Source: Azolla caroliniana (lineage: Eukaryota > Plantae > Polypodiophyta). From it: 64,000 nt of DNA. The first letter of the stretch is position 1. Each line of letters opens with the position of its first letter. Made by a program: the position numbers and the translations under genes. The notes under the pieces are model-generated. The model had not been told where the DNA came from, did not search any database, and saw only the letters and a list, made by a program, of their open reading frames with translations. The stretch is from contig JBHGNT010000013.1 of NCBI GenBank assembly GCA_043228905.1, forward strand, positions 9,858,001-9,922,000. Reading direction: 5' to 3'. Positions 6,200-35,157 of the stretch are shown one piece after another.

Positions 6200-9100
6200 A
6201 GTGGTTCCATTCCGTCCAAGCAAGTTTGCAATGTGTTTCTAGCCCAAGTCATTGTTAGTACTAAAAGTACTCTCCCAGTACCCGTCCTAGCACTTTTAGA
6301 TTCCGGAGCTAATTCCTGTTTCATGGATCAAAATTTTGCCCAAGCTTCTTAGATATCCCTAAGAAAACTTCCTTGTCCCGCATCTGTAGTAGTCATTGAT
6401 GGTCGTCCCATTGCTTCCGGGAATATTGTAGAAGAATCAGAACCCATTCAAGTTGTCCTAGGTAGTTTTGTGTGTGTAATATCATTTAATATAATTAGTA
6501 GTCCAGAGCATCCCATTGTCGTAGGATTACCTTGGTTTGAATTACATAATCCAGCCATAAATTGGAGAACAAGAGAAGTCCGATATCGACCACCCCAAGA
6601 ATCTACTCACCGAGTTTCGACCATTTCACTCCATCAATTACGCGAAGAAGGACACAAGGAGGCAATGTTCCTATTTGCAATATCAGTACATCCTTCCAAC
6701 ACTATTAAGAAGGACTCCTCATGACAACTTCCGGCAAAATATCATCCTTATGCCGATGTATTTGACAAGGTAAAAGCCGGTACCCTTCCTCATCACCATC
6801 CCTATGATTGTCCCATCGATTTACAACCAAGAACCAAGCTACCATGGGGACCAATTTACAACTTGTCACCCACCAAGTTAGAAGTCCTTCGAGCCTACAT
6901 AGAGGAGAATTTGGCAAGCGGGTTCATTCGTCATTCGAAATCTCCGGCCGGTGCACCCATCTTCTTTGTCAAGAAGAAAGATGGCTCACTTCGTCTCGTC
7001 GTTGATTACCGCGGATTGAATAAGGTCACCATCCGGAATAGGTATGCACTTCCTCTTATATCAAGTCTTTTAGAGCGAGTTAATGGTGCCAAGTTTTTTA
7101 CCAAAATCGATCTACGAGGAGTGTATAACCTCATGCGGATCCGACCAAGAGATGAATGGAAGACCGCCTTTCGCACGCGGTATGGGCATTTCGAGTATAC
7201 TGTTATGCCGTTCGGCTTAACCAATGCACCCGCGGTCTTCCAACACATGGCAAATGATATATTCAGAGACCTCTTGGATATCTATTTGATCATCTATCTA
7301 GATGATCTATTGATTTATTCGAAGACCCAGCAAGAGCACGATTCTCATGTACTATTAGTAGTGACTTCGCGAGAATGGTCTTTATGCCAAGCTAGAAAAA
7401 TGTAGCTTTGACTGCAAGCAAGTGGAATTTCTAGGCTACGTCATCTCCTCAAAGGGCATCGCCATGGATCCAGCTAAAGTCCAAACTGTACTAGAGTGGC
7501 AAATTCCACGGTCGGTACGAGATGTACAATGTTTTCTAGGTTTTGCTAACTTCTACCGTAAGTTTATACAGGATTATTCAAAGATTATTTTACCCCTCAC
7601 ACAACTTACGAAGAAGGGCCAAGCATTTCTTTGGTCCATCGAGGCAGATATGGCTTTTCAGCATCTTAAGAAAGCCTTTACATCAGCACCGATTCTAGCT
7701 CATGTGGATACCAGCAAACCATTCATCATGGAGGCTGATGCTTCAGATTTCGCCCTCGGTAGCATCCTTTCTCAACAAGGAGATAAAGAAGGGTTGCATC
7801 CGGTGGCTTTCCATTCGCGCAAATTCGATGTCGCGGAAATCAACTACGAAATACATGACAAGGAGTTATTAGCCATCGTGGATTCATTTGTGCAATGGCG
7901 GCATTTCTTAGAGGGCTCTCCACATCAGGTCATTGTCTTTAGTGATCATAAAAATCTTGCTTATTTCCAGAACGCTCGCGTACTAAATCGACGGCAAGCT
8001 CGGTGGGTGCAATTCCTCACGCATTTCGACTTCAAAATCACATATCGACCGGGGAAGCAGCAAGGAAAAGCAAATGCACTATCACGACGTTCATATCTTG
8101 CACCTCGTCCTAGTGATCCAACATTTGATAATCAAAAGCAAGTAATCTTGGGACCAACACGATTGCACACGACGCGGATTTTTCACACCCCGATGGATTC
8201 ACAGATTACCGATGACATACGTGCAAACTTGAAGACGGATAGTTTTGCTCAAGACATCCTGGCACACATTGATACTTCTCGGGCATCCTGTTCTCAGTCT
8301 CAACAACCAGGTATTGACTACAGACAATTCAAATATCATGATGGTTTGTTATTCTTTAAAAAGCGCGTATATGTCCCCGATTGCTCCTGTCGCCTTCAAA
8401 TCGTCCAACATTGTCACGACACCCATACGGCGGGACATTTCAGTAGTACTAAGACGTTGGAGCTAGTGCAACGATCTTTTTGGTGGTCCCACATGCGCCG
8501 TTTTTTCGACGACTATGTTTGGACCTGTGATGCTTGCTGCCGAGCAAAGATGCCACGACACCATCCATATGGCTTGTTGGAACCCTTACCGATTCCAAGT
8601 AAGCCGTGGGAGTCTATTTGTCTTGATTTTATCATAGATCTATCGGTCTTGCAGGGGTTTGATGCTATCTTAACCATCGTCGATTGATATACGAAGATGG
8701 CACATTTTGTTCCGTGTACTAAGGCCATCACTAGCGAGGAAACCGCCGCCCTAGTCATGCGTGAGGTATTTCGGCATCATGGCCTCCCAGACAATATCAT
8801 CAGTGACCGAGGACCGCAATTTGTCTCCAAATTTTGGCAGCATCTCTTCAAGATGCTCAAGGTCTCTTGCAACCTCTCCTCCGGCTACCATCCTCAGACC
8901 GATGGGCAGGCGGAACGAACAAACCAAACGCTGGAGCAATATCTCAAGTGCTTCCTGAGTTATCAACAAGACGATTAGGCCGAGATTCTCCACTTTGCGG
9001 AGTTTGCGTATAATAATGTTGTTCACTCCTCGACTCGAGTCTCCCCATTCTACGCTTATACCGATTCTCATCCTCGCTGGTCGGTGATCGACACCCCGGA

Positions 9101-9704
9101 GCTACCTACCAATCCTTGTGCCGGGGATCATTTGGAGAGACTATGCAAGATCCAGACAAATCTCTCGACTCATCTTCGTCATGCTCAACAGACACAGAAG
9201 ACTTACGCGGATCGTCATCAGCTTCCCTCCTCTTTTGCCATCGGAGATCGAGTATGACTCTTACGTCGTCACATCAAGACTACTTGACCATGCGACAAGT
9301 TGGATTATCGACGACTCGGTCCTTTCCGTATTACGGGTAAGGTTAATGATGTCACATTTCGCCTCGATCTCCCTCCGCAACTTCAGATACATCCGGTTTT
9401 CCATTGTTCTCTTCTTGAACCTTATAAAACAAACACCATTCCCGATCGTGTTACACCACCGCCGCCCCCGATGGAGTTGGACGCTGGCCTGGAGTATGAA
9501 GTTGCTCCCATCCTTGATTCCAAACTTATTCGCAACAAACTTTATTATTTGGTCGATTGGCTTGGTTATAGTCCGAGCGAACGCACTTGGGAACCCGTTC
9601 AGCATGTTACCAATGCTCAGGATTTGCTTGCTGATTTCCACCGAAAGTATCCGGACAAACCCGGTCCACAATCAACGCCGACTCGTTCCACTCGTCGTCT
9701 TTAA
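6200..9704 (+). pseudogene. pol: pol of chromovirus A (PR-RT-RH-IN-chromodomain), fragmented
   Basis: LLDSGA, YLDD, DASDFALG, ISDRGPQF and chromodomain YEV..ILDSK..YLVDWLGY..TWEP spread over several ORFs. Confidence 0.93.
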
Positions 9705-9730
9705 GGGGGAGATAGTGTCATGATATGGCA

Positions 9731-9785
9731 AGACTCGAACCCATAACCTTATGGTATATGGGTCGAGCTCTTAACCATCACACCA
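9731..9785 (-). promoter_or_regulatory. tRNA-like Pol III A-box/B-box module in U3 of element A (antisense)
   Basis: Minus strand TGGTGTGATGG ... AAGGTT ... GGTTCGAGTCT with 46 nt from T8 to T54, as in tRNA genes. Confidence 0.6.
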
Positions 9786-9860
9786 TCTATTGTAATTCAT
9801 AGAATATTATTTTCATTTATGTTTTATTATAAGAAAGTAATGTATATTCCAGATTTCTCT

Positions 9861-9880
9861 GGAACATTCTAGAAGTTTCA
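9861..9880. promoter_or_regulatory. Heat-shock element (GAAnnTTCnnGAAnnTTC) in LTR A
   Basis: gGAAcaTTCtaGAAgtTTCa about 20 bp upstream of TATA. Confidence 0.7.
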
Positions 9881-11305
9881 GGATTACTCCTGACAACACT
9901 ATAAAAGAAGGCACTAGGCATTATGTTGAACCAATTTGGTTCAACACCAGTCTTAAGCCTCTTAGCCGATTTGTACTTATCTTTCATATAATATAAGAGT
10001 TGCTGTCATCATCCTTCTCTCTCTCTCATTCTCGCTATCTCTCTTTTCGCTTCTCTCTTTCTCTCTCTCTCGGGAGTCTTACGCAATCCCGTCCTCTTAG
10101 TAATAATAGTACTGCTCTTCTTTAGTACTAATTCCATCTTTGCTTTAGTACTATTCCTGACAACTGTAAGTCCATCTCGACTCCTCTAGATAGAATCGTC
10201 AAGCTTCACCCCGATTCCGGAAAGGTATGCGACCCGACGAGGTTCCGACAGATTGTCGGAAGCCTTATATACTTGACCATCACCCGACCAAATCTCAACT
10301 ACCCGGTCAGGGTGATCAGTCAGTTCATGGTGCTATCGACCAAGGAGCACCTTCAGTGTGCACAACGCGTACTCTGGTACGTCAGTGGCACTAAGGACCG
10401 GGGGCTACTATATCGGACCGATACTGACGTGCAGTTGGTTGGTTACATCGATGCTAATTGGGCCGGAAACGCCGGCGATCGCCGATCCATGTCCGGTTTC
10501 GCATTCTCTCTTGGGAGTGCCGCGATCGCGTGGAGTAGCAAGAAGTAGTCAACAGTTGCACTATCGAGCACCGAAGCCTAGTATAGAGGAGCGGTTGTCG
10601 CGACATGCGAAGCCATATGGTTGAAGCGGCTACTTAAGGATCTGCAGGTGGAGGTATCCGATCCAACGACAATCTATTGCGACAACCTCTGTAGTATCCA
10701 GCTAGCTAAGAACCCCGTCTTCCACGCCTGGACTAAGCACATTGAGGTGCACTACCATTTGGTCTGTGAGCGTGTCCTCTCCGGTGGAGTCGAACTTCAG
10801 TATGTTCCGACGGATCGGCAGAACGCCGACATCTTCACCAAGCCTCTTGGTCTGGATAAGTTGCGGCAATTCTCGGGTGCGCTTGGGTTGCGTCACCTCG
10901 ATGTGCCAAACTTGAGGGGGAGAGACGTCCATGATGATCATGGAAGGGAGCAGGAAAAGAGCGGAAAAGACCGTGACGCCGAGCCGAATGACGAATTCGA
11001 TCTCGGATCGGCTGAAGAAGCCGAGGGCAGATCCATAGAAGAGCCCAAAGGCAAACATAAGGGGAGCAGTCGAAAGAAAGAGCCGAAGCCAACCAAGCGT
11101 GGGGGAGACGAAGCCATCAAGGGCGAGAAGACCGAAGACGAGTTGGAGACAACCAACTCGGACGAGAGCGAAAACCGATCGGAGGAAGCCGAATCGGTTC
11201 AGATGTTTGATTCGGATACGTTGAATCAACCAAGGGCCAAGCATAAGAGAAGGTGTCATGAAGACATACATCTTGGCTTATCATGACATTCATCTTGGCG
11301 AACCA

Positions 11306-11360
11306 GGAATCGAACCCATAACCTCTTGGTTTACATATTGTACTTTAACCATTGTAATAA
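11306..11360 (-). promoter_or_regulatory. tRNA-like B-box (perfect GGTTCGATTCC) plus degenerate A-box in U3 of element B
   Basis: Plus strand GGAATCGAACC 11306-11316; minus strand reads ...CAATGGTTAAAG...GAGGTT.ATGGGTTCGATTCC. Repeated in the 3' LTR. Confidence 0.6.
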
Positions 11361-11413
11361 CATATGTGAGATGTAATCATAATAATTATATGTTTAGTTA
11401 TTACGAGATATTT

Positions 11414-11516
11414 AGAACATTCTAGATTATTCTAGAATGTTCTTGAATATTTCATGATTATATTTATTATTATTATTATTCATAAATATCTAAAATATTC
11501 TAGAACATTCTAGAAT
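11414..11516. promoter_or_regulatory. Two heat-shock-element arrays in LTR B
   Basis: GAAcaTTCtaGAttaTTCtaGAAtgTTCttGAA (11415-11447) and TTCtaGAAcaTTCtaGAA (11498-11515). Confidence 0.75.
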
Positions 11517-11803
11517 ACTCCATAAGGGCCTATAAATAAGAGTCCATACACTCATCACAACTCATTCGGTTCGACACCATCCTATAGCTCCCTATTGCCT
11601 ACTCCTTGTAATCTTCTTTCTCATAATATAATCGCATTCCCATTTCTTATCTCTCACTTATACTTTTCTCTCTCTCGCACTCTCTCCCTCTTTCACTCTC
11701 TTTCTATCACTATCGCTATCTCTACCGCTCTCGCCATCTCTATCGTTATCGTTATCTCTATCGCCATCGCTCTCTCTGCTTCCTACTCAAGAGTCACGAC
11801 AGT

Positions 11804-11814
11804 TTGAACCGAAT
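11804..11814 (+). promoter_or_regulatory. Self-priming PBS of chromovirus B
   Basis: TTGAACCGAAT is the exact reverse complement of ATTCGGTTCAA (16949-16959), ~33 nt after TATA. Confidence 0.8.
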
Positions 11815-11886
11815 ATTTCTTTTCCCTTTCTCCAATAACCCTAGCAAGCTTTCTTCTTTATCCTTCTTTCTTTTTCCCCCGCGGTT

Positions 11887-13014
11887 ATGGAGTCGGTCAG
11901 CAAGCAAGAGTATATGCGTGTCCTTTCGGAGCTCGATATGCTCACCACTAAGTTTGTGGCATTAGAGCAAGAAAATCAAAGGCTACTCGGGGATCTTCAA
12001 CAAGTCAGTACTGAGAAAGCTCATCAATATGAGGAGTTATCACAACGGGTTCATCAACTTGAGGCTACTATATTAGCATTACGAGAACAAGCGGCGGGGG
12101 TTCAAAACTCCCCAAGGGAACCAAAGATTAGCCTCCCTGCCAAGTTTGATGGTACCAGATCTCTCTTTCGAGGTTTCCTGAATCAAGTTCGTTTGGTGAT
12201 TCAGTTACATCCCAATCGGTATCCAACTGATGCTGCCCGTGTGGGATTAATAGGAACCTTGCTAAGCGGTACAGCGTTAGCATGGTTTGCACCACTTCTT
12301 GAGAAGAAATCACCATTACTGGAGGATTTCGAGGCATTCGTTAAGGAGTTTCAAGCTAGTTTTGGAGATACGGATAGCACTAGGACTGCAATAAACAAGA
12401 TTCGAAGACTCCGACAAGGAGATCGTCCCGCTTCAGCTTATGCCGCAGATTTCCGTCTCTTGGCATGCGACATCCCTTGGGATGAGGCAGCCTTAATGGA
12501 TCAATTCCGTCAGGGTTTGCGTAACGATGTCAAAGATCTTCTTCTTACTTTCCATGAAGATCCAAAGTCTCTTACTGAAGCTATTAGCCGAGCTGTGCGA
12601 TGTGATAATCGCCTATTTGAGCGACGTTCTGAACGTCAACAAATGTTACGCCGCCAACCGGAACAGACATACGCTTCTATAGTCGCCACACCGCCACAAG
12701 GTTCTAGACCCGTTACGAGGGATGGTCCCACTCCGATGGAAATAGAGTTGACACAACGTCGCGGGCCCTTATCAGATGCTGAGAAACAACGACGTCGGGC
12801 GCATCGCCTATGCCTCTACTGTGGTGGTCCAGGACATATAGCTGTGAATTGTCCACATAAACCCAGGCGTCAAGTTTACCAAGTAAGTGCACATGACAAC
12901 CCTACATCAAGTTCTACTATCACTTCTAATAACTTAAGTACTAAGCCTACTAGCCCATGCCATGAGAATAGATTTGATGTCTTGAGCCAATTAGAGGATG
13001 TGTTAAACGAATAA
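11887..13014 (+). CDS. gag: Gag of chromovirus B (coiled coil, retrotransposon gag domain, CCHC knuckle)
   Basis: 375 aa ORF with CLYCGGPGHIAVNC. Confidence 0.95.
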   Translation: MESVSKQEYMRVLSELDMLTTKFVALEQENQRLLGDLQQVSTEKAHQYEELSQRVHQLEATILALREQAAGVQNSPREPKISLPAKFDGTRSLFRGFLNQVRLVIQLHPNRYPTDAARVGLIGTLLSGTALAWFAPLLEKKSPLLEDFEAFVKEFQASFGDTDSTRTAINKIRRLRQGDRPASAYAADFRLLACDIPWDEAALMDQFRQGLRNDVKDLLLTFHEDPKSLTEAISRAVRCDNRLFERRSERQQMLRRQPEQTYASIVATPPQGSRPVTRDGPTPMEIELTQRRGPLSDAEKQRRRAHRLCLYCGGPGHIAVNCPHKPRRQVYQVSAHDNPTSSSTITSNNLSTKPTSPCHENRFDVLSQLEDVLNE

Positions 13015-16000
13015 GTCCGGCCAAAATAGGAGCCATTTGGTTGGACCATCCTAGTTATGTAGAGTCAGTACCTAGTTGTGGTTCCATTTCATCAAATCAA
13101 GTTAGTAGAGTTTTTTCTGCACAAGTCGAGCTTAGCACATCTACAGGTCATCGCGCCCTAGCCTCTGCCCTCCTAGATTCCGGAGCCAATTCTTGTTTCA
13201 TGGATCGCGAGTTTGCATTGACTCAAAACATCATCTTGAAAAAACTCCCAAACCCAGTAGCTGTAGGAGTCATCGATGGTCGCCCTATAGCATCAGGAGA
13301 TATAGTCGAAGAGTCTGAACCAATTCGTGTAGTCCTAGGTAATTTGGCTAGTGTCATCTCATTTAACATCATTAGTAGTCCGGAGCACTCTCTAGTTCTT
13401 GGTCTTCCTTGGTTTGAGTTACATAACCCAACCATTGATTGGAGAAAAAGAACTATTGAAGAGGTCACCGTACAATCCAAGTCTCTTGAAGCTCCAACTA
13501 AGGATCTAGGATCCCCCACAATTTCAACAATCTCTATACATCAATTACGAGAGGATGGAAGAAAGGAAGACATGATGGTATTTGCGGTTTTAGCAACTCC
13601 CTCATCTAGCTCACAAGAATTGGGGGTCCAACTACCAAAGAAGTACATAGAATTCTCCGATGTGTTCGATAAGGTGAAGGCTAATAGACTACCAGAGCAT
13701 CGACCATATGATTGCCCAATTGATTTGCAGCCAGGAAAAGAGCCTCCATGGGGACCAATTTATAATCTTTCGCCCACGGAGTTAGAGGTTCTTCGAGAAT
13801 ATATCAATGAGAACTTGGCAAATGGTTTTATCCAACATTCAAAATCTCCTGCTGGTGCACCCATCTTTTTCGTTAAGAAGAAAGATGGTACGCTTCGTAT
13901 GGTCGTGGATTATCGAGGCTTAAATAAAGTGACCGTTAGAAACCGATATGCTCTCCCATTGATCTCAAGCCTTCTAGAACGCCTCAGTGAAGCAAAGTAT
14001 TTCACGAAGTTAGATCTTCGAGGTGCCTACAACCTTGTTCGAATTCGTCCTGGGGATGAATGGAAGACGGCGTTCCGCACTCGCTATGGTCATTTTGAGT
14101 ACACAGTGATGCCTTTTGGCCTCACGAATGCACCAGCAGTCTTCCAACATATGGCGAATGATATTTTTCGAGACTTCCTCGATATCTTCATCATTGTTTA
14201 CCTGGATGATATCTTGATCTACTCAAAAACTCAAGAAGAACATGATATACATGTTCGCCAAGTTTTGCAACGGCTACGAGAGTATGGTCTCTATGCAAAA
14301 TTGGAGAAGTGTAGTTTCGACCAACGTCAAGTGGAGTTTTTGGGGTACATAGTCTCTTCAAATGGCATCTCTATGGATCCATCAAAGGTTCAAACAATTT
14401 TGGATTGGCAAACACCACAGTCCGTGCGAGATGTGCAATGTTTTTTGGGGTTCGCAAACTTTTATCGCAAGTTCATCAAAGATTATTCAAAAATTGTGTT
14501 GCCCCTCACTCAACTGACGCACAAGAATCGATCATTTGTATGGAGTATAGATGCGAACTCTGCATTTGAGGGTTTAAAGCAAGCATTTACATCCGCACCA
14601 ATCTTAATCCATGTCGATCCAATGAGGCGCTTTATACTTGAAGCTGATGCATCGGATTTCGCACTCGGAAGTGTACTATCCCAAATTGGTGATGATGGTG
14701 AACTGCACCCGGTGGCTTTTCACTCACGAAAATTTGAAGCCACAGAAATCAACTATGAGATTCACGACAAAGAGCTTCTTGCCATTGTGGATTCTTTTCA
14801 ACAATGGCGTCATTTTCTGGAGGGTTCTTCTCAGCAGATTATTGTCTACAATGATCATAAAAATCTAACATACTTTCAAAGTGCTCGAGTCTTGAATCGA
14901 CGACAAGCTCGTTGGGCGCAGTTCTTAACTCGTTTCGATTTTGTAATTCTATATCGCCCTGGGATGCAACAAGGAAAAGCAGATGCTTTATCTAGACGTT
15001 CGTATATGGAACTTCAACCTGGAGAGGCCGCATTTGAAAGCCAAAAGCAAATCCTCTTAGGTCCTGATCGTCTACGAATAATGGCAATGCATACCATCAA
15101 CACACCGGGAGATTCAAGGCTTCTTGATTCCATTCGTGAGCAGATTGCGACTGATGCGTTCGCCCAAGAGGTTTTGAGCCATATTATCCCAAATCGTGCA
15201 TCTAGCTCCCAAACTCAAAATCCTCGTCTAGACTACACCCAGTTTAGTTGGCATGATGGGTTACTTTTTCGACAAACTCTCTTGTATGTGCCTGACGGTC
15301 CTTCTCGACTCAAAGTCATGCAACAATGTCATGACACACCAATGGCAGGACACTTCGGCATCCACAAGACTTTTGAGTTGATTTCTCGCCGATATTGGTG
15401 GCCACGGCTTCGCCATTTTGTTACGGATTATGTTCGTAGCTGTGATACATGTTGCCGATCAAAAAAGCCTCGACATCATCCATATGGCTTATTACAGCCA
15501 ATGCCTATTCCGGAGAGCCCATGGAAATCTATTTCCTTGGACTTTATTACGGATCTTCCACCTTCCAAGGGATTTGATTCGATTCTCACGGTTGTCGATC
15601 GTTTTACGAAGATGGCACATTTCCTTCCATGCACAAAGACCATTACTAGTCAAGAGACAGCTGATTTACTCATGCGGGAGGTGTTTCGCCATCATGGTCT
15701 TCCGGATGATATTATCAGTGATCGGGGTCCCCAATTCATCTCGAAATTTTGGCGGCACATGTTCAGACTCTTACATACTTCTTGTAAACTCTCTTCCGGC
15801 TACCATCCAAAGACTAATGGGCAGAGTGAGCACACCAACCAAACAGTCGAGCAATATCTACGTTGTTTTGTCAACTATCAACAAGATGATTGGGTGGATT
15901 TACTACCTTTGGCAGAATTTGCTTATAACAACTCCGAGCATTCTTCTACTGGATATTCCCCATTTTTTGCAAACATTGGGTACCATCCTCGTTGGACGAT

Positions 16001-16646
16001 GCTTGAACATCCTGAACTCCCAAAAAACCCAGCTGCTGAAGATCGGCTCACTCGACTCCAAGAAGTTCAAGATATGCTTTTGCATCATTTATGTGAAGCC
16101 CAAAACACTCAAAAGAAGATTGCTGACCGTCATCGGCGTGATTCATCGACTACATTTCAAGTAGGCGATCGTGTATGGCTCTTACAAGGTAGCATTAAAA
16201 CGACCCGACCTTGCTACAAATTGGATTATCAACGTTTTGGCCCATATGTCATAAGTGGTAAGATCAATGATGTGACATTTCGACTTGATCTTCCTCCTCA
16301 TATGCGTCTTCACCCGGTCTTCCATGTTTCACTTTTGGAGCCTTACACAACGAGCTCTATTCCGGGTCGTGTTACACCTCCCCCACCTCCAATTGACGTT
16401 TCCAATGGCTCTGAATATGAGGTTGCCGCTATCCTCGACTCCAAGATCATTCGCAACAAACTATACTACTTGGTTGATTGGTTAGGCTATACACCTAATG
16501 ATCGAACATGGGAGCCTGCCGAACATCTTGCCAATGCCTCCGACATGGTTGTTGCATTTCACAACCAATATCCTCATAAACCAAGTCTGAACTCTTTTCT
16601 TCCGACTCGTGCAACTCGTCATCGAAAAGGGGGGATAATGTCATGA
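12978..16646 (+). CDS. pol: Pol of chromovirus B (PR-RT-RNaseH-IN-chromodomain), in the -1 frame relative to gag
   Basis: Frame open from 12978 (after TGA 12975) with no nearby ATG; LLDSGA, YLDD, DASDFALG, HHCC, SDRG, GQSE and chromodomain motifs. Confidence 0.95.
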   Translation, partial: CLEPIRGCVKRISPAKIGAIWLDHPSYVESVPSCGSISSNQVSRVFSAQVELSTSTGHRALASALLDSGANSCFMDREFALTQNIILKKLPNPVAVGVIDGRPIASGDIVEESEPIRVVLGNLASVISFNIISSPEHSLVLGLPWFELHNPTIDWRKRTIEEVTVQSKSLEAPTKDLGSPTISTISIHQLREDGRKEDMMVFAVLATPSSSSQELGVQLPKKYIEFSDVFDKVKANRLPEHRPYDCPIDLQPGKEPPWGPIYNLSPTELEVLREYINENLANGFIQHSKSPAGAPIFFVKKKDGTLRMVVDYRGLNKVTVRNRYALPLISSLLERLSEAKYFTKLDLRGAYNLVRIRPGDEWKTAFRTRYGHFEYTVMPFGLTNAPAVFQHMANDIFRDFLDIFIIVYLDDILIYSKTQEEHDIHVRQVLQRLREYGLYAKLEKCSFDQRQVEFLGYIVSSNGISMDPSKVQTILDWQTPQSVRDVQCFLGFANFYRKFIKDYSKIVLPLTQLTHKNRSFVWSIDANSAFEGLKQAFTSAPILIHVDPMRRFILEADASDFALGSVLSQIGDDGELHPVAFHSRKFEATEINYEIHDKELLAIVDSFQQWRHFLEGSSQQIIVYNDHKNLTYFQSARVLNRRQARWAQFLTRFDFVILYRPGMQQGKADALSRRSYMELQPGEAAFESQKQILLGPDRLRIMAMHTINTPGDSRLLDSIREQIATDAFAQEVLSHIIPNRASSSQTQNPRLDYTQFSWHDGLLFRQTLLYVPDGPSRLKVMQQCHDTPMAGHFGIHKTFELISRRYWWPRLRHFVTDYVRSCDTCCRSKKPRHHPYGLLQPMPIPESPWKSISLDFITDLPPSKGFDSILTVVDRFTKMAHFLPCTKTITSQETADLLMREVFRHHGLPDDIISDRGPQFISKFWRHMFRLLHTSCKLSSGYHPKTNGQSEHTNQTVEQYLRCFVNYQQDDWVDLLPLAEFAYNNSEHSSTGYSPFFANIGYHPRWTMLEHPELPKNPAAEDRLTRLQEVQDMLLHHLCEAQNTQKKIADRHRRDSSTTFQVGDRVWLLQGSIKTTRPCYKLDYQRFGPYVISGKINDVTFRLDLPPHMRLHPVFHVSLLEPYTTSSIPGRVTPPPPPIDVSNGSEYEVAAILDSKIIRNKLYYLVDWLGYTPNDRTWEPAEHLANASDMVVAFHNQYPHKPSLNSFLPTRATRHRKGGIMS
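13002..13054 (+). promoter_or_regulatory. -1 ribosomal frameshift signal, element B
   Basis: G_TTA_AAC 13002-13008; spacer GAATAA; 11-bp stem GTCCGGCCAAA/TTTGGTTGGAC; loop TAGGA pairs with TCCTA downstream. Confidence 0.82.
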
Positions 16647-17185
16647 AGACATACATCTTGGCTTATCATGACATTCATCTTGGCGAACCAGGAATCGAAC
16701 CCATAACCTCTTGGTTTACATATTGTACTTTAACCATTGTAATAACATATGTGAGATGTAATCATAATAATTATATGTTTAGTTATTACGAGATATTTAG
16801 AACATTCTAGATTATTCTAGAATGTTCTTGAATATTTCATGATTATATTTATTATTATTATTATTCATAAATATCTAAAATATTCTAGAACATTCTAGAA
16901 TACTCCATAAGGGCCTATAAATAAGAGTCCATACACTCATCACAACTCATTCGGTTCAACACCAGTCTTTAGCCCTTAGCCTACTCCTTGTAATCTTCTT
17001 TCTCATAATATAATCGCATTCCCATTTCTTATCTCTCACTTATACTTTTCTCTCTCTCGCACTCTCTCCCTCTTTCACTCTCTTTCTATCACTATCGCTA
17101 TCTCTACCGCTCTCGCCATCTCTATCGTTATCGTTATCTCTATCGCCATCGCTCTCTCTCTGCTTCCTACTCAAGAGTCACGACA
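16639..17185 (+). repeat. 3' LTR of chromovirus B (547 bp)
   Basis: Matches 11254-11801. Confidence 0.95.
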
Positions 17186-17803: not shown

Positions 17804-18298
17804 ATCCCCTTCTCACTCATATGACCTAGTCTCTTGTGTCATATCTCTCTTGCTGAGTCCGCTGCCACATTCACTTCCGACTTGCACAGTCGGGCATACA
17901 TCATATACAATGTGCCTTCTTTCTATGCTCGGGCCACTATGAGGTTTCCTCGGTAGAACTTCCACTTGCCATTCTAAAAGCTACCATTATAGCCTTCATC
18001 ATCCATCTTTCCAGTCGATATCAGATTCAATCTAATATTGGGGACATGTCGAACATCCTTCAGAGTCTGTCGACGTCGTCAAACAGACACTTCTGACTCC
18101 GACTATCTTGCACTCCCCACTGTCACCCATCTTTAAATAACCATGATCATTGTCTATGTAAGTCGAGAAATACCCTCTTGACGGAGTTAATATGTGGAAA
18201 GATGCACCGGAGTCGATCACCCAAGTGCATTCGCTTGCAAGATTTGCACTTGCTTGTTCACAAATGAACAAGAGTTCTTCATTGCTCGTAGCAATGGC

Positions 18299-18893
18299 TA
18301 GCAATGGGCCCGGTTTCGGCTTAAACTGAACCGAACCGTTAAACCATGGTTTAAAGGTTTATAATTTCCAAAATAATTAAATGGTTTGGTTTGGTTTTAA
18401 TTAATAATAAACGATTCGGTTTCAGTTCGATTTGGCTTTGAAATTAGGGTTTATAGGTTTATAGGTTTTTGGGCTATCTTTTTTTATCCATTAAATGTTT
18501 ATGTAATTTAATAGTTTAATTAATGTTTTTCATTGGTTTAATTCACTTAACTTAATTGTTTATTTAATCTAATGGCTCAATTAATCTTATTTATTTATTT
18601 ATTTATTTTAATATAAATTCTTATTTAATTTTGTGTATTTTTTAATTAATTTTTTAATTAGCTTGGCTTAAATGTGGTTAGGTTTAAACTTTTTATTAAA
18701 TGGTTCGGTTTGGTTTTAACTTTTCCTTAAACGGTTTTGGTTTAAATGGTTTAGTTTACCTCTTTTTTAAATGGTTTGGTTTAAATGTTCTAATGTTCAT
18801 AAACGGTTTGGTTTGGTTTTTGTTTTATATAAAAGGGTTTGGTTTGGTTTGGTTTGGTTTCAAGGCATCGAAACCGAACCGGGCCCATTGCTA
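18299..18893. mobile_element. Non-autonomous hAT element (MITE), 595 bp
   Basis: 17-bp perfect TIR TAGCAATGGGCCCGGTT; 8-bp TSD GCAATGGC (18291-18298 / 18894-18901); many subterminal AAACC(G)/GGTTT motifs. Confidence 0.92.
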
Positions 18894-19745
18894 GCAATGG
18901 CTGAAGTGTTCTTTTCTTTAGGAATCTTCCTGGGTTCGACATTATTACCGACACTCTTGTCCTTCTTAAGATGTCGGTAGTCCTTCTGGAAATGTCCAAG
19001 TTTACCACAGTAAAAGCATGTCAGCTTACCTCTGGACTTCGATCTGGCGTGGGAAAGGTCCCTTCGTTGTGGACTTCTTTGTCGATGTCTTCCTCTGCCA
19101 GTATGTTGAGTCAAGTTTGACTCCGACTAAACCAGGACACCCTTGTCCTTCCTTCTAGTGTCCTCGTTCAAGATACTTGTCTTCACGGCTTGAAGAGACA
19201 AGTTCTCTTCTTGACATGAGGTGTTGAGAGTCACCACTAGATTCTCCCAGTTGTCTGGCAAGGTGCACAATAGCAGGATGACCTGCATTGCATCTTCGAG
19301 TGGGAACTTGGTTGCGGCAAGTTGATTCACGTACCCCATGAATGTGCTGATGTGTTTGACGATGCTCTCACCATCTCTGTATTTCAGCCGTATGATCTTC
19401 CTCATCAATGAGGTTTTATTGAGGGCGTTCTTCCTCTCATATAGACCTGACAACTTCTGCCACATCTCATGGGCGTTCGTGTCGTTCGCTACATGCTGAA
19501 GGACACGTACATGGACGCACTGTCGGATGGCGATCACCGCCTTTCTGTTAAGAAGTTTCCATTCCGACTCTAATACCCCCTTGGGTATTTCTGCTCTATC
19601 GATCGGCTCGTACAAGTCTTTGACTATGAGGAGGTCCTCCATCTTTATCTTCCGGTCTCCATAGTTCTGTAAATTTAGAACTATCATACATGGGAAGCCG
19701 CTCCCACCTCCTTCCATGCTTGCACCTAAAGCTCTGATACCAGTT

Positions 19746-20430: not shown

Positions 20431-20827
20431 TCTCACAGACATGAGAAGAGTTATGTCAAGATTCAAACTCTTGACCTCTTGTATTATAATCAAGTGCTAT
20501 GTTGTAACTAACGCATCCAAATACATAGTCATGTTATGTATATCTTCGTAGATTATCTATTCAAGTTCTAGGAGTTTTTAGAACTTTCTAGAACTAGAAG
20601 GTTCTAGAATATTCTCCAAAATATTCTCTAGAATATTCTAGTGCATGTACTTCAGCTCATAGTATAAATACTTGTAACCTCCTTGGTTCCTTTCAAGGGA
20701 TTCAACGCCAGTGATTGACACATCAATCTAATATTCTCGTTTCGCCCCATCTTGTATCCTTGATCTTCATCTCAATAGCCCCATCATTTGTGCTTTGTTC
20801 GAGTCAGCATTTGGTGTGTCCATGACA
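20431..20827 (+). repeat. Old chromovirus 3' LTR with preceding PPT
   Basis: AAAGGGGGGATAA PPT; T(C)TCA...TGACA; same layout as LTRs A/B (decayed B-box, HSEs, TATAAATA, TTCAACGCCAG). Confidence 0.75.
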
Positions 20828-23290: not shown

Positions 23291-25124
23291 GTGCACAGAG
23301 ATTTAACGTGGAAACCCTAAAATGGGAGAAAACCACGGAGAATAGAGCTTCACTATGTATACTGGATATACAACAGAGGGTATGTTACAACACTCTTCCG
23401 AGTGTATCAACCACGTGGGGCTCTTGGCGTCTGCTGTTACGCACACAACTATGGTGCCACACTCTCTCTCCTTCTCTCTCTCTACTCACACCTCAAGCTC
23501 TCCTTCTAGCACTACTTCACTCTGTCTCTTCTATTCTCTCTCGTTTTTCCCTAAGTGTATTTATACTTATACACTATATGGATTATTTACAAATGTAGCC
23601 TCTGCTACATATCATTATTATTATTGCTATAATAATAATAGTCGAACTATCAAACAGTCGATTCACTGTTTTCGACTCTTCGACTGTCGGCTTTCCGAAC
23701 AGTCGGATCTTCCCTGTCTTCGACTGTCGGCACTCCTTGGTCCGATCAGTCGGCTCCTTGTAGTCATCGACTGTCAGCAACTTCTGGACAGTTGGTTCCT
23801 CCTCCCACTTGAGGGAAATATTCCCAACAAACTCCCCCTTCACTCCTGTGGGAGGAAGTCAATCAGTCCTGTCTTCTATCGATAGACTCTGAATCTATCC
23901 ATAGGTAGGTTCTTCGTCAGCATGTCGGATCCATTGTCGTTAGTATGGATCTTCACTAGGGAAAACTCTCCTTCTTCGACTCTCTCCCGCAACCAGTGAT
24001 ACCTTCTCTTTATATGCTTGGTCCGGGAGTGGTATGCAGCATTCTTGGCAAGATGTATGGCACTCTGACTGTCACAGTGAAGTAAGAGCTCCTTTTACGT
24101 CATCCCTAATTCGGTGAGAAAACTTCTCATCCAGATCATCTCTTTGCCGGCCTCTACCACTACTATATACTCCGCCTCTGTAGTCTATAAAGTTACAGAC
24201 TTCTACAGTCGTGACTGCCACGACACTGCTCCCCCCTACATAGGTCATCACGTACCCTGACGTGGATCGGCTCGAGTCGACATCTCCCGACATGTCCAAG
24301 TCGGTAAAACCTTCCAGCACAGGTTTTCCGACACCATACCTTAGGCATACCTCTGAGGTGCCTTTTAAGTACCTAAGTATCCACTTCACCGTTGCCCAAT
24401 GTTCTCTTCCTGGATTACTCATATATCGGCTTACTGCTCCTACAACAAATGTTATGTCAGGTCTCGTCCAGACCATAGCATACATTAGACTACCGACGGC
24501 CGAGGAATACGGTACCTTCCTCATCTCGACCTTCTCCTTCTCCCCTCCCGGGCACTGCTTCGCATTTAACCTACAATTTGTTGGCAACACTGAGCCGACC
24601 GGCTTTGCGTCTGACATGTTAAACCTCTCTAGGATCTTTTTCACATACTTCTGTTGTGACAACCATAGCACCTTTTGAGTTCTGTCTCGAACTATGTGCA
24701 TTCCCAAGATATGTTTAGCCGGTCCAAGGTCTTTCATGGCAAATGATTTGCCAAGAGCTTTCTTCAAGCTTCCAATCTTCCTTGTATCTTGACTGACTAT
24801 CAACATGTCATTGACATATAGCAAGAGAATCAATAAGTCTCCTTCTTCGTACCTTTTGACGAACACACAGTGATCGTCTTGTGTTTTCTGGAACCGGTGT
24901 TCCATCATGAAGAACTCGAACTTCTTGTACCATTGGCGTGGAGCTTGTTTCAGACCGTACAAGCTTTTCTTGAGTCGACACACCAGATTCTCTTTCCCTT
25001 TCTCCATAAATCCTTCGGGTTGCTCCATATAGATTTCTTCTTCTAGCTCCCCGTGCAGAAATGCGGTTTTGACATCCAACTGTTCGATCTCCAGATCCAT
25101 ACTGGCCGCTATGCTCAGAACAAT
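23291..25124 (-). mobile_element. Copia G fragment (RT-RH, PPT, truncated 3' LTR 23291-23829)
   Basis: LDVKTAFLHG; YVND (YVDD mutated); PPT GAAGGGGGAG; LTR similar to E; no TSD seen. Confidence 0.88.
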
Positions 25125-26427
25125 TCGCCCAAATGCACAATGCATATGAGATGGGCAAAGTTCGGATCAAGCTCATGTTGGAAAGGCATTGGAAGTGGTT
25201 GTTAGACTAGAAAGTAGAAGAAGCTCTGACTCAGGGATGGCAAGAATGGTCGGCACAAGTGGCCGAATTACAAATAGTCCGGGCATATCACGAAAACTGC
25301 AAAAAAGAGGGCCGAGGATAGCATTAAACTGCTCTGAGAGGACCTGGCTGATGAATTCTACTCCCTCGCCCAAATGCACAATGCATACGAGATGGGCAAA
25401 GTTCAGATCAAGCTTGTGTTGGAAAGGCATCGGAAGTGGTTGTTAGACTAGAAAGTAGAAGAAGCTCTAACTCAAGGATGGCAAGAATGGTCGGCACAAG
25501 TGGCCGAATTACAAATATTCCGGGCAGATCATGAAAACTGCCAAAAAGAGGGCCGAGGATTCTACAAAATGGACGAGGATAACATTAAGTTGCTCTGAGA
25601 GGACCTGACTGATGAATTCTACTCCCTCGCCCAAATGCACAATGCATACGAGATGGGCAAAGTTTGGATCAAGCTCATGTTGGAAAGACGTCGGAAGTGG
25701 TTGTTAGACTAGAAAGTAGAAGAAGCTCTGACTCAAGGATGGCAAGAATGTTCTGTAGAAGTGGCCAAATTACAAATATTCCGGGCAGATCACAAAAACT
25801 GCCAAAAAGAGGGTCGATGATTCTACAAAATGGACGAGGATAGCATTAAACTGCTCTGAGAGGACCTGGCTGATGAATTCTACTCCCTCGCCCAAATGCA
25901 CAATGCATACGAGATGGGCAAAGTTCAGATCAAGCTCATGTTGGAAAGGCATCGGAAGTGGTTGTTAGACTAGAAAGTAGAAGAAGCTCTAACTTAGGGA
26001 TGGCAAGAATGGTCGACACAAGTGGCCGAATTACAAATATTCCGGGCAGATCACGAAAACTACCAAAAAGAGGGCCAAGGATTCTACAAAGTGGACGATG
26101 ATAGCATTAAATTGCTCTAAGAGAACCTGACTGATGAAGTCTACTACCTCGCCCAAATCCACAATGCATACGAGATGAGCAAAGTTCGGATCAAGCTTAT
26201 GTTGGAAAGGCATCGGAAGTGGTTGTTAGACTAGAAAGTAGAAAAAGCTCTGACTCAAGGATGGCAAGAATGGTCGACACAAGTGGCTGAATAACAAATA
26301 TTCCGGGTAGATCATGAAAACTGCCAAAAAGAGGGCCGAGGATTCTACAAAATGGATGAGGATAGCATTAAACTGCTCTGAGAGGACTTGGCGATTAATT
26401 CTACTCCCTCGCCCAAATGCACAATGC
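25125..26427 (+). repeat. ~261-bp tandem repeat, 5 units plus a partial unit
   Basis: Unit starts at 25125, 25366, 25627, 25888, 26149, 26409 (TCGCCCAAATGCACAATGC). Confidence 0.95.
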
Positions 26428-28183
26428 GGAGGTGATAAAATTGATCGAGGAATTTGAGGACGAGCAGCTAACAACTCGGCCATAAAATTGGAGAAATATG
26501 AACGAGAAAGAATCCAGGCCAAGGCAGAACGCAATGACCGAAGCAGAGCAGAAAATGAAACCGGAGCCGCGAAGGAAGAACAAAAGTCAGAGGTGGCGAG
26601 GAGGTACCCATCTAAATGACGGAGAAGCAAGTCGACAACCAAGATGACAACGACACCATAGGGGGAGCAAAGGCCCCAACCTGACGTCGACCTAACAAAC
26701 GCAGATAACGAATAGCCGGGGGAGCTAAAGACCAGAGCAGCCGACTGCGGAATATCCTAACGGCGATGATAGACAACCAATTAGCCGAGGAACAACAAAC
26801 ACATCTTGAACAAGCAGCCAAGTTCAACATCAAAGCAGATGACTCGCGACAGTCGCCGAGCATCTTGCACATTTTTTACGAGGAGTAATTCGCAAGCTTT
26901 TGGCGAGGATTTCTTTGTTTTTTCAATTCACATTATTTTTTCTATTTTTGTGGGTTCGACTTGCAAAGCACTGTCACATAGGCGTGCTAGGTGTTGACTG
27001 GGCAGGACGATCGAATGTGTGAAAGGGCAACTAGCCAAAAGACGAATAAGGCACGAAACTACCTAATAGAAACGATTGTAACGCACCATGCTTCTAGAAA
27101 TAGGAAGCATGGAGGCCTATATAAATACCGAGTTATCGAGAGAGTGGGGGCCGACAAGATTATTATATTTAGGCATGAAGTTTACAAAGAGGGGAGGACT
27201 TTAGAGAGAATGAGTGTTATATCGACAGTTGATTGATACTTGTAACGATATGTATTCGTAATCGATTATTCTTTTTTATGGGGAAACCCTGTGTATCTAA
27301 CGTATGCTCTAAAGTGTATTGTTTGTGCGTAGTCGTGAGCTTGTGATCGGGTGTAGCTAATTCGACGAGATACTTGTTATTGTGTCCCTTATGAGGTTCT
27401 AAGAGTTGTCTGCATCCCCGAGTGTCGTGCGGATAAGACGAGCTCGGGTATCCACAGAGAGTTACCTAGGAACCCTTGGAGTTTAGTTACCTCCATAACT
27501 CTCGTAAAGTACCCAGTCGACGGGATGACCCGAAGCCCCTTCCTCCTTCCTACGACAATTACCTTGATCCGATTACATGGGAGTAGCAACCAAGAGTGTG
27601 TTTTTCTAGAAAAAGGGGTAACAAATATATGATTTCCAATATGAAAAATTTGCAGAAAAGGTGGAAACAAATAAAATACCAACTTGTGAAGCAAGCAAGT
27701 GGTGATGAAGATGGTGTTCCAAATGCACGTTGATGGTTGGTTGGCTGATTTTGTTTTCCCTCCACAAAACCCAAAATGAGAGGTTTCAAGATTTTATACG
27801 ACTTTGTTGGGTGACCACGCTTGGTTGGGTGACCATATTTGATTGGACGACCGAGCTGGTGATAGTTGGGCGACCATATTTGGTTGGGCGATCGAGCTGG
27901 TGATAGTTCGGTGACTGACCAATGATAATTGGGCGACTTACAAGTAGTCGAGTGACTAAAGGTGTCAGGGTTGGGCGATTACTAACAACTTTTTATTCAC
28001 GTGTTTTTTTATCCAAATTGGATGGTGCAGATTGCACGCGGCCTCCGTTGAGCAACTTGGAGAGTCCATAGCCGTGACTCCTTCCGAAACCTATTTATGA
28101 GTTAGGTCCAAATAGACACGAGCGTTTGTATGTGTGTATGTATGTATGTATGTATGTACTCGATCCATCTATTCACCCATAGC

Positions 28184-32170: not shown

Positions 32171-33394
32171 TTATATAACTAGAACATGAGTGGGAGAAGT
32201 GAGGATTGAAGATAACAATATGAGTAGGGTTAAGATTAAGCATGACGTTTGAACATTAGCTCCATTATTAATGAAGCCCTGAGGGACTCCTGGGAGAGGC
32301 TTATTGGGGTCGTAGGAAGGGTTCACACCATAGATTGCCTGTGCCCCGTCTATGTCATCTGGAGTCAGCTCGGCCTTCACTTCCCAGGTATTGAGGCTGG
32401 GATACATGACAGCCTTGACTACGGCCGAGTGTTCGAGGCCGATGACATGGCCGATCTCATGCAATGCCACGGACTGCAAATCGATTTGGTCAGTGCTACT
32501 GCTTCTTGCTTCTCGAGGAGGAGAATCCATGACACTCCATGACTCCGCATCGTCGAAATGAAGTTCCGAAGGAGGATTTTGATTGGTGTCAGGGTCGGGT
32601 GGCCACACGAGGGCATGTGCGAGCTCGCCGAACCTCCCGTCGAAAGGGCTGCCATCCCCATGCACGTTCTGATAGAACGCGATCTTGATGTCTGCTTTCG
32701 AATAGTCGTCGATCTCCGTGAAACTGAGGGGGACGACGGCCGCCCATTCCTTGAAGGCATTGGCGAACACCTCTCTCCGTTCGTGTGCCGATACCTGGGA
32801 GGTCTCGTTGACAGGATGGAATGCATAAGTAATGGCATTGCGGTGGGAGGGCGGCCATGTGCCGATGGCGGAGGTGCTGAGCGCGAAATGGTGGAGCGGA
32901 GAGAATGTGGGCCGGCGATATGGCCGTGGCCGGACACGGTGGTGCATTAACATGAGGGAGGTTCCATTGACGACATCGTGGCGGCCGCAGCGGGGAGTCA
33001 TGAGATTGAGGAGAGTGGGGTTGTCCAAGGTGCCCGACACACGGAGGCCGAAGCTTTTCTGGTATAGTTGGAGGGCCGCCAAGGTGTCGGAGTCGAAGTC
33101 ATCGGTCATCAGCTGGTGCTGTGATGGTGATGGTGGAGGCGGCAGTTGGGTCCAGGTCCAGCCCGGAAAGTAGCCGAAGTGGGCCAGGTATTGCTTGAGG
33201 GAGGAGATCCCAGGCTTGGAGTCCCCCAGGCCCACACCATGCAAGCTCCGGAAGTGGGTCCATGGACCATGAGCCTGCGTGGAGGGTCTACCTGGCAGTA
33301 CGGGCCCCCAGTCTATGGGTCGAGCACTAACCATTACGAGTGTATGAAGCGATATGAGAAGCAGAAGCAGAAGCGGAAGATGAGGATGATGATG

Positions 33395-33425
<31 letters not shown>

Positions 33426-33502
33426 AGCAGAGCTGGAAGAAGAGGAGGAATTGAGGAGGAACAGAGCAAGGGCTGCTGCAGGCGATGAATCTTCATCATC
33501 AC
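32171..33502 (-). CDS. MMP: Plant matrix metalloproteinase (metalloendoproteinase MMP, peptidase M10A), intronless
   Basis: Hydrophobic signal segment; LKQYLAHFGY propeptide; cysteine switch PRCGRHD; HGDGSPFDG..LAHA; HEIGHVIGLEH; Met-turn AVMYP; C-terminal hydrophobic/GPI-like tail. The start Met is uncertain. Confidence 0.95.
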
Positions 33503-35157
33503 ATCTGCTCTGCTCTGCTCTCTGTCTGTCTGTCTATCGGATGGCGTTTCCGAACTGTTCTCTTCTCTCTTCTCTCTCTCTCTCTCTCTGGTTATATTTC
33601 CATACGCAACAACCTAAGAAACGCAAACGCAAGTGTTGATTTGCGCGTGACGAAAACGCAAACGCAAACGCAAATGCAAATGCAAAACGCAGAAAATGAT
33701 TCATAGATAGATACATAGTGATAGATACACGAAAGGGACCATTAATATGAGCTACAAGTCGGGGTAAAATCGGGTTTATTTCAGTTTTCGTTGGAATTAA
33801 GGGCTGGGTGAGTTTTTGCTGTTTTTGTTTGATAGTTTTGGAGTTGTTTCTCTGAGTTTGTATATGTTGATCCCAGTGTGGATTCGGGTAAAAAAAGATA
33901 GCGATATATACACGTATACGTACAATACACATACACATGCTCACAAAATGTCAACAATTTTATCTACCAATTGGGCTATACATGTTCAGAGACCAAAATC
34001 TCGGAGTTGTACATATACAAACTCCGCACACTACAAACCTAAAAAATCGCAAGATGTAATGTGCAAAAACTCAGAGATCATGGCTCTTGTTCAGAGGATG
34101 GCAAGATAAACTCGTAATTTTTGCAGCTATTTGCATTAGAGTCTCTTGAAATCAATGTAAATCTATCACAATGCAAACACGGAACCTTCTTAGTCTTACA
34201 TATTGACAACCGCCTCTTAGCACCTCTTTGTTGTCTTCCGAGCACCTCTTTGTAGTCTTCCGGTGTGTGTTTTGGTTGTGTTTGGGGAGCTAACAATAAG
34301 TTCTTGTGAAATGTTGGGAGTGGCTCCTCTTTTCGCACCAATTTGTTGCTTTTGACCGATTGAACCTCTGGATGCCATATTGGTTGTTGCCGGTGCACCC
34401 ATAGATGAGAGCAACTCTTTCCCCGATCTACCATGATTTACTTGCAAGGCCCTGGTAATCACAATATGAACATTGGAGCAGGACATTCTACCATAGAGTG
34501 GGAGTGGTCATGCTCAATATTCAAAACCAATATCGGGCCTCATTCATAATATACGTTATGTTGTTATCAGTCACATATCTTTCTAGTATCCTCTCAAGCT
34601 CTTTAAGTCTTGACCTTTGATCCTTACAATTTGCATGATTCTGGAATCTACCACTCTCACATATCTCGTGTCGTTGTATGTACCATTCTATCACGCTCCC
34701 GCCGATGCAAGTGCAAGAGACACTATCCCCGATTAAGACATGTGCAAGTTTGGTAATAAACAAATTTATTCTCCCTCTCAATGTAGTGTACTTGAGAAAT
34801 TGCTAATGTCTCTCCACAAGATTGGTAGTGTCAACATGTCCATAGTTTAGTCTACCAAACTTGGGCCATAGATTCCTCCAAACACAAGTTTGTCCACACT
34901 ATCCAGATTCTATATATTGCAAAACCCCAGGTTTGTTTGTGTATTCCTTCCTTATCTCCTCACACATAACATTGAAGGAAGATTCTATAATTCATGCATG
35001 AGTTGGTGCACCCTTTGATAGAGGGGGGTTTCTTTGGACATCACTCACTTTGGGCAACAAGTTGTCAACCCATGATCTTTTAGCGTGGAACAAACACAAA
35101 AAAAGACAAGAACGTGTTTGTGAGTGTTCCACATTGTGACAATCGAAGATTCATGAT

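Follow-up and report, generated by a model that had tools for sequence, protein, structure and literature searches.

In Helenus (TRIMp3; Kojima 2024, PMC10886601), the LTR contains a tRNA-derived sequence whose conservation is centred on boxes A and B, which is not a functional tRNA and which is not the primer. Helenus elements are non-autonomous, 311-1263 bp long and tRNA-primed. The cassette lies in sense orientation in Helenus-1_SMo and in three wasp LTRs, and it is taken to drive the RNA of the element itself; the one plant family of Helenus is found in Selaginella (PMC10886601). The same study argues that autonomous partners need Pol II and that common LTR sequence is unlikely for them; it adds that "not a few" LTRs in Repbase have parts resembling tRNA, which it leaves undescribed, its own analysis having dealt only with TRIMs (PMC10886601). 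In the Cassandra and Ajax TRIMs, which are also non-autonomous, a Pol III promoter has been captured in the LTR as well; it is a 5S-derived type-1 promoter and transcribes the element itself (PMC10886601). Foamy viruses are autonomous and mainly Pol II-driven, and their LTRs carry A/B-box Pol III units that produce conserved hairpin RNAs with terminators (PMC3993851). In the tRNA-primed Ty3/gypsy element Ty3, the primer-binding site is bipartite. That is, U3 holds sequence complementary to the T and D arms of a tRNA, and it pairs with one tRNA (PMC5371799). In yeasts, TFIIIC binds DNA with A- and B-boxes, or with a B-box, at tDNA/TFIIIC barriers and ETC sites, which serve a purpose beyond tRNA output (PMC13578239, PMC11724288).

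The LTRs analysed in this study have features in common with all of these systems. As in Helenus, they contain a tRNA-derived sequence with box-centred conservation; as in Cassandra and Ajax, it resembles a captured Pol III promoter, and, as in the yeast sites, it is A/B-box DNA. Unlike the TRIMs, the elements are autonomous, about 6 kb long and predicted to self-prime, and the antisense cassette sits at the edge of U3, next to a TATA promoter that is separate from it. In contrast to the foamy viruses, a hairpin is found in only one family and the module has tRNA geometry, and in contrast to Ty3, only the universal tRNA positions are kept. The preliminary description of this DNA knew of no earlier account of such a module for plant chromoviruses. 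In the open-access literature, with Repbase entries outside the scope, we found no description of it in LTRs of moss or plant chromoviruses, and to that extent this stands; however, Helenus (PMC10886601) and the U3 of Ty3 (PMC5371799) are precedents that had been overlooked.

The window, by which we mean the whole 64-kb stretch of DNA that was analysed, is a nest of retrotransposons. The elements that concern us here are the following.

6203-9710, pol matches of element A, a Tcn1-like chromovirus
9703-9715, PPT of element A, directly before its 3' LTR
9716-10162, plus strand, LTR A, the 3' LTR of element A (TG...CA)
11254-17185, plus strand, element B, a Tcn1-like chromovirus of 5.9 kb (TSD GAAGG, LTRs 98% alike)
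11845-13014, plus strand, gag of element B, open frame
12978-16646, plus strand, pol of element B with chromodomain, open frame
about 20431-20827, old LTR of the L016 family (75% identity to the L016 LTR over 182 nt; without its own integrase in the window)

Positions 1-181 of the window match the 3' part of LTR A at 98%. Element B is inserted inside a copia fragment, and the integrases of A and B are 65% identical. Pfam analysis of the element B reading frames gave gag and then the order RT-RNase H-integrase with a C-terminal chromodomain, which is the Ty3/gypsy layout. The chromodomain (EYEV...DWLGY) has Y, W and Y, the residues that we take to form the aromatic cage. The chromodomain and the predicted self-priming described below point to the plant Tcn1 clade, which is reported only from mosses and club-mosses (PMC6317226); on this ground, the host would be a moss or a relative of mosses. 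Plant Tcn1 chromoviruses share with the present elements the domain order, the aromatic-cage chromodomain, predicted self-priming and the 5-bp TSD, whereas the tRNA-like LTR module, present here, is unmentioned in the parts of the reports on them that we draw on (PMC6317226, PMC2864245).

Other features of the window are a host gene for a matrixin-type metalloprotease (Peptidase_M10 and PG_binding_1) at 32171-33613 on the minus strand, amid transposon nests, a tandem array of about five 261-nt units at 25064-26436, and a MITE-like insert in a copia fragment at 18290-18900, in which terminal inverted repeats and a GGTTT-rich interior were seen by eye. At its start (11254-11288 and 16639-16673), LTR B repeats its terminus in inverted form over a short stretch, TGTCATGA...TCATGACA, which makes a second LTR-end-like motif 35 nt inside the LTR.

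The module and the promoter parts that accompany it in the window are listed below, with tRNA numbering of positions.

9732-9785, minus strand, module of LTR A, tRNA-derived and resembling a type-2 Pol III promoter, from T8 to C61 (27.6 bits)
9772-9785, minus strand, A-box-like motif of LTR A, T8 to A21 (T8 at 9785, G18G19 at 9776-9775)
9745-9749, minus strand, variable-loop-like AGGTT of LTR A, tRNA positions 44-48 (AGGT at 9749-9746)
9732-9741, minus strand, B-box-like motif of LTR A, G52 to C61 (G53 at 9740, T54 at 9739)
9793-9837, A+T-rich spacer (87%) of LTR A, upstream of the module, where TFIIIB is predicted to land
9862-9907, plus strand, HSE-like repeats and TATA (9900), Pol II promoter of LTR A
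11307-11359, minus strand, module of the 5' LTR of B (G18 at 11350, G53 at 11315; 27.5 bits)
16692-16744, minus strand, module of the 3' LTR of B (G53 at 16700)
20460-20517, minus strand, decayed module of the old LTR (13/16 motif positions)

The label HSE for the repeats in the U3 of LTR A is our assumption. Direct reading of the minus strand confirmed what had been claimed for LTR A, namely an A-box, a variable-loop-like AGGT and a B-box with 46 nt from T8 to T54. A14 is G in the window copy; among 40 of 127 differences for contigs aligned to LTR A, most of the contigs differ at 9779 and carry the A14 base. The perfect B-box reported for LTR B, GGTTCGATTCC, was likewise present in both copies (11316-11306 and 16701-16691), with the A-box TGGTTAA at 35-nt spacing, and the three differences among contigs within the B module, a number too small to weigh, all lie outside the invariant positions. 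It had also been said that the B-box is in the same place in both LTRs. This is not quite so, because the distance between G53 and the LTR tip is 24 nt in A and 61 nt in B. As for the old LTR, the decayed module described there is found, as AGGTC and GTTTGAATC (G53 at 20468, C56 changed to T) with the A-box, by eye, only a displaced remnant. The family status of this LTR depends on its 75% identity over 182 nt to the L016 LTR.

We searched metagenome contigs with the integrase and took the best 80 of 617 matches; the DNA downstream of the integrase could be read in 72 of the 80. Among these best 80 loci, six further families have the module near the LTR tip (L001, L003/L004, L005, L007, L011/L012 and L016), and L052 is a further copy of family A. 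The integrases of the eight families are 56-86% identical. We then scored the starts of 30 LTRs on 16 motif points. In the carrier group, 10 of 12 reached 14-16 of 16 (the old LTR scored 13 and L018 11), and none of the 18 others scored above 12. The 16-point score includes AGGTY, which was picked after viewing these LTRs, and the independent test is the phage-tRNA matrix described below.

The module is not carried by all relatives. It is decayed in L018 (11/16) and absent from the LTRs of L006/L008/L009/L010, which are one family, and of L014, and none was seen by eye in Selaginella SM-Tcn1 in the part of the PMC2864245 supplement considered. Viral contigs gave only two distant loci (36%), and a search among them for an LTR-plus-box pattern had no match. 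In an integrase tree of 40 rows, made by a quick method from the loci of this analysis only, with no named Tcn1 reference, a supported clade of 20 contains all 10 carrier rows, L018, five module-less rows (L006, L008, L009, L010 and L014) and four rows without a readable LTR, and carriers occur in both main branches of this clade. The simplest reading of this tree would be one gain of the module followed by losses, and exchange of LTRs between elements may also explain the distribution. In L003, L007, L011 and L018, a PBS and gag come straight after the 3' LTR; either these elements stand in tandem with one LTR in common, or the assemblies are collapsed. Another antisense tRNA-like A/B module is located in pol of L011 (L011:990-1065 and L011:6315-6390, minus strand). 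It lies in frame in the PR-RT linker of both elements, the two copies are 86% alike and score 26.1 and 19.6 bits, and the match to the Rfam tRNA family is 11.9 bits (E 5.5). No comparable match was found in the linkers of the other families. This linker case suggests that tRNA-like captures recur.

For the chance test, we used a matrix of A-block and B-block trained only on phage tRNAs (37 of 41), and scanned both strands of the window plus 82 loci, 652 kb in total. The intact modules of the window (G53 at 9740, 11315 and 16700) scored 27.5-27.6 bits and ranked 3rd to 5th in the 652 kb. The median of the training tRNAs was 27.2 bits, and the maximum over 20 block-shuffled windows was 20.1. Seven of the top eight matches are LTR modules, at 25-30 bits, and the same modules are still near the top when the variable loop is left out of the matrix. 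The modules also match the consensus of both boxes, A and B, at tRNA-like spacing by which a type-2 Pol III promoter is recognized. These modules are not explained by chance. Weaker A/B-box-like matches outside LTRs, at 46480-46535 of the window (plus strand, 20.5 bits) and at L008:13350-13405 (minus strand, 22.2 bits), are possibly old SINE or tRNA remnants.

A module of this kind could be an intact tRNA gene. ARAGORN found no tRNA gene in the window or in the 35 of the 80 metagenome loci that were scanned, and Rfam gave no tRNA match at E<=5 in the window or at E<=10 for three single modules. The reading as an intact tRNA gene was rejected on these results, and a cloverleaf with paired stems is not formed. 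The scans agree with the earlier proposal that the stems had been lost and the motifs kept.

Then we compared the modules of the eight families in an alignment with one row per family, each from one or two contigs. Across these families, 82 of 88 textbook invariant positions of the two boxes, A and B, are kept, AGGT at 44-47 is kept in all eight, and G18, G19, G45, G46, G53 and A58 never vary. The mean pairwise identity was 0.87 at the invariant positions and 0.37 at the 47 positions of the stems and the anticodon arm (p=2e-7 in a Mann-Whitney test that takes positions to be independent); box identity is somewhat inflated because the rows were anchored on the boxes. That box positions should be more conserved than their neighbours had been set beforehand as the test of the module, and they are, 0.87 against 0.37. 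For reference, identity at four-fold synonymous sites of the integrases averaged 0.39 (28 pairs, range 0.26-0.61), with 0.29 for random sequence. That is, both the stem positions and the synonymous sites are near saturation. The L016 family agrees with every other family at 12-14 of 15 motif positions, but at only 7-17 of the 47 remaining ones. The spacing from G18 to G53 is 35-36 nt in all eight families, while the distance to the LTR tip varies from 24 to 61 nt. C56 is changed to T in L003 and C61 to T in L005; these are single-contig rows, and L004 keeps C56. Upstream of the module, a 45-nt stretch is A+T-rich in every family (78-93% A+T, versus 55-67% in the module).

The DNA further inside U3 is less constant. 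HSE-like repeats occur in window LTRs A, B and the old LTR and in L001, L011 and L016, and CATGCATG and GCCACGTGGC-type motifs, which we presume to be RY/ABRE-like, occur in L003, L005 and L007. In these last three of the eight families, the U3 enhancer is replaced while the module stays. The preliminary description had coupled the module to the HSE promoter, and this coupling has to be given up, since L003, L005 and L007 keep the module with another enhancer. The self-primer, like the module, persists across U3 enhancer types.

Is the module read as RNA or as DNA? No covariation was detected in the stems (permutation p 0.40-0.73 per stem), and 50.3% of stem cells are paired in the real rows versus 49.5% in shuffled ones, with 210 of 500 shuffles as high. 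Selection on a cloverleaf was rejected on these two results. The T-stem shows a weak residue, with 65% of cells paired, which may be ancestral. The statement that the acceptor and anticodon stems are not kept and only the motifs are is borne out by the identity of 0.37 and the missing covariation. The module of family A forms an imperfect inverted repeat; it folds as a single long hairpin (window 9720-9793 minus and L052:72-145; z of -4.9 and -4.5), which resembles a small-RNA precursor; no strong fold was found in the seven other modules (z -2.0 to +1.3). A T4 run, as expected of an oligo-T terminator, follows within 50 nt in 5 of 11 rows. In L003, L004, L005 and L007 such a run stands inside the LTR, 21-28 nt beyond G53, and in L001 it is at the PPT; none is found within 90 nt in A, L011 and L018. 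By eye, no CAA start motif of the plant type was evident at a constant position.

The invariance of G18, G19, G45, G46, G53 and A58 would suit readout by a protein better than RNA pairing, in which wobble changes should pass. The B-box core is read by TFIIIC, and C56 is critical for binding of the yeast factor (PMC11811891). Yeast TFIIIC (tauB) makes base-specific contact at 44-47, mutations from +44 to +47 alter binding or transcription, and 31-93 bp are tolerated between the boxes (PMC11724288). TFIIIB prefers AT-rich upstream DNA (PMC13578239). The kept positions of the module, as far as can be judged from sequence, match the bases that TFIIIC reads, namely the B-box core and 44-47. Because the boxes are kept while the surrounding DNA has diverged almost to random, they likely bind TFIIIC, and the pattern fits purifying selection for binding of TFIIIC to the DNA.

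Whether a tRNA takes part in priming bears on the role of the module. The predicted primer regions in the window are as follows.

9933-9945, plus strand, predicted 5' end of the RNA of A and its self-primer; complements the PBS at 187-200 with a 9-nt perfect core
11564-11575, plus strand, predicted start of the B transcript and its self-primer; lies 33 nt beyond TATA (11531) and complements the PBS at 11802-11814

The PBS complements the element's own LTR, and not the 3' end of a tRNA, with 9-12 nt perfect in A, B, L003, L007, L011 and L018, and the self-primer lies 32-33 nt after TATA in five of these six. Between B, L003/L007, L011 and L018, the PBS and self-primer change together in a compensatory way. 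Self-priming of the Tf1 type has already been predicted for Tcn1 (PMC6317226). For SM-Tcn1, PMC2864245 saw no evidence of self-priming; in its supplement, a self-primer and PBS complement can be seen by eye at about nt 398-410 and 497-510. We predict that the present elements self-prime and do not need a primer tRNA, as had been supposed before, and the complementarity with its compensatory changes supports this. If they do, the module is not a primer source, and a pairing model like that of Ty3 loses its main reason.

Several explanations of the module can be weighed on these data. The module may be a working Pol III promoter whose RNA is selected, either a short antisense RNA from the 3' LTR towards the PPT/integrase end that tunes expression or copy number, or a small-RNA hairpin like those of foamy viruses, whose LTRs contain A/B-box Pol III miRNA genes (PMC3993851). 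The A-box, the B-box and the A+T-rich upstream zone are all kept, T4 runs follow G53 in L001, L003, L004, L005 and L007, and the family A module folds as a long hairpin. However, no RNA sequence or fold is common to the families beyond the boxes, as the z values of the seven other modules show, and A, L011 and L018 have no T4 within 90 nt; we regard this explanation as possible and rather unlikely. Another explanation places the function in the genomic RNA, in which U3 would pair with the D-loop and T-arm of a packaged host tRNA and aid dimerisation, packaging or strand transfer. This accounts for the antisense orientation and the tRNA-like spacing, and HIV-1 reportedly has a similar tRNA-like stretch in U3-R. 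The U3 of Ty3, which holds the 3' half of the bipartite primer site, does pair with the TPsiC and D arms of tRNAiMet (PMC5371799). Several things count against this explanation: self-priming is predicted, and the PBS changes along with the self-primer in B, L003, L007, L011 and L018; positions 49-52, 59 and 62-65 are free to vary though pairing needs them equally; and wobble-type changes are not seen at the invariant G and T positions. A58 is invariant as well, although m1A58 of a tRNA cannot pair normally. Pairing with a tRNA is thus improbable in our estimation.

The boxes could also be sites of unrelated Pol II factors that resemble tRNA boxes by accident, for example WAACCA on the plus strand, which we take to be a MYB-type site. 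The plus strand has TAACCA or a close variant in most families, and these LTRs bear stress-type elements. Such an accident is very improbable, however, given three motifs at exact tRNA spacing that score like real tRNAs with the phage-tRNA matrix. Neutral carriage of a relic of a SINE or tRNA insertion would agree with its loss or decay in sister lineages and with the second antisense capture in the L011 pol linker. The identities of 0.87 at boxes, 0.37 at module neighbours and 0.39 at synonymous sites, and the motif positions that L016 shares with every family, do not fit neutral carriage, which we consider largely refuted and highly unlikely. Finally, the module might be a landing pad or targeting cue, with Pol III-targeting retroelements, or the family itself, inserting upstream of it. 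We consider this the least probable: upstream insertions are missing from all the LTRs that were read, element B lies within a copia fragment, the 35 of 80 loci scanned contain no tRNA gene, and attracting insertions would be without evident benefit to the carrier.

We therefore return to binding of TFIIIC to the DNA. The module is probably a functional TFIIIC/Pol III element. As to its selected role, a barrier or protection of the promoter is the leading candidate, to which we give slightly less than even confidence. Presumably, an ancestor of the Tcn1-type lineage captured a tRNA-derived sequence, reversed, at the outer edge of U3, and selection has likely kept just the bases read by TFIIIC, so that each LTR would carry a portable TFIIIC site. 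The antisense orientation may have come from a switch of the RT onto tRNA or SINE RNA in plus-strand synthesis, or from a SINE insertion. TFIIIC would bind the B-box and positions 44-47, and the A-box would set TFIIIB inward, onto the A+T-rich spacer. The complex thus formed in the 5' LTR would stand between the flanking chromatin and the enhancer and TATA, about 165-235 nt further in, and the promoter would be kept open; in the seven families in which it is readable, the predicted transcript start is 165-233 nt from G18. Any Pol III RNA made outward or antisense would then arise as a side effect.

A barrier would have a purpose here, since chromodomain elements of this type are thought to enter heterochromatic TE islands. 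RLG1 of Physcomitrium, a chromodomain element that we do not equate with the families described here, is concentrated in such islands and yet transcribed (PMC7466625). Pol III complexes act as barriers in yeasts; according to a 2026 review, the barrier function is undescribed in plants, and dispersed plant tRNA genes seem incompatible with heterochromatin (PMC13578239). Several points count against the barrier model, the seeming incompatibility of dispersed plant tRNA genes with heterochromatin among them. The module is dispensable in the wider clade, judging from its absence in L006/L008/L009/L010, L014 and SM-Tcn1 and its decay in L018, and C56 is lost in L003 and C61 in L005. The fixed spacing of 35-36 nt is not demanded by this model, given the 31-93 bp that yeast TFIIIC tolerates. 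The full picture, a heterochromatin-seeking lineage of plant retrotransposons with its own tRNA-derived TFIIIC insulator in every LTR, is offered only tentatively, and we think it somewhat doubtful.

In conclusion, the conservation pattern indicates that a real, selected, tRNA-derived promoter-like module is present in a lineage of autonomous plant chromoviruses that are predicted to self-prime. This extends the capture of Pol III promoters from non-autonomous TRIMs to autonomous self-priming elements, and in the opposite orientation. In TRIMs the captured promoter drives the element's own RNA, and the antisense module must serve another role. It offers a mutable candidate of 55 bp for two questions, that of TFIIIC/tDNA barriers in plants and that of the promoter activity of chromodomain elements in heterochromatin. 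If the barrier model is true, this would be the first case in plants of a chromatin barrier of the Pol III type; it would explain how such elements are transcribed inside silent TE islands, and it would mean that many mobile TFIIIC sites are scattered through moss genomes. If the module is bound in vivo, the solo LTRs of these families would form a large extra set of TFIIIC sites.
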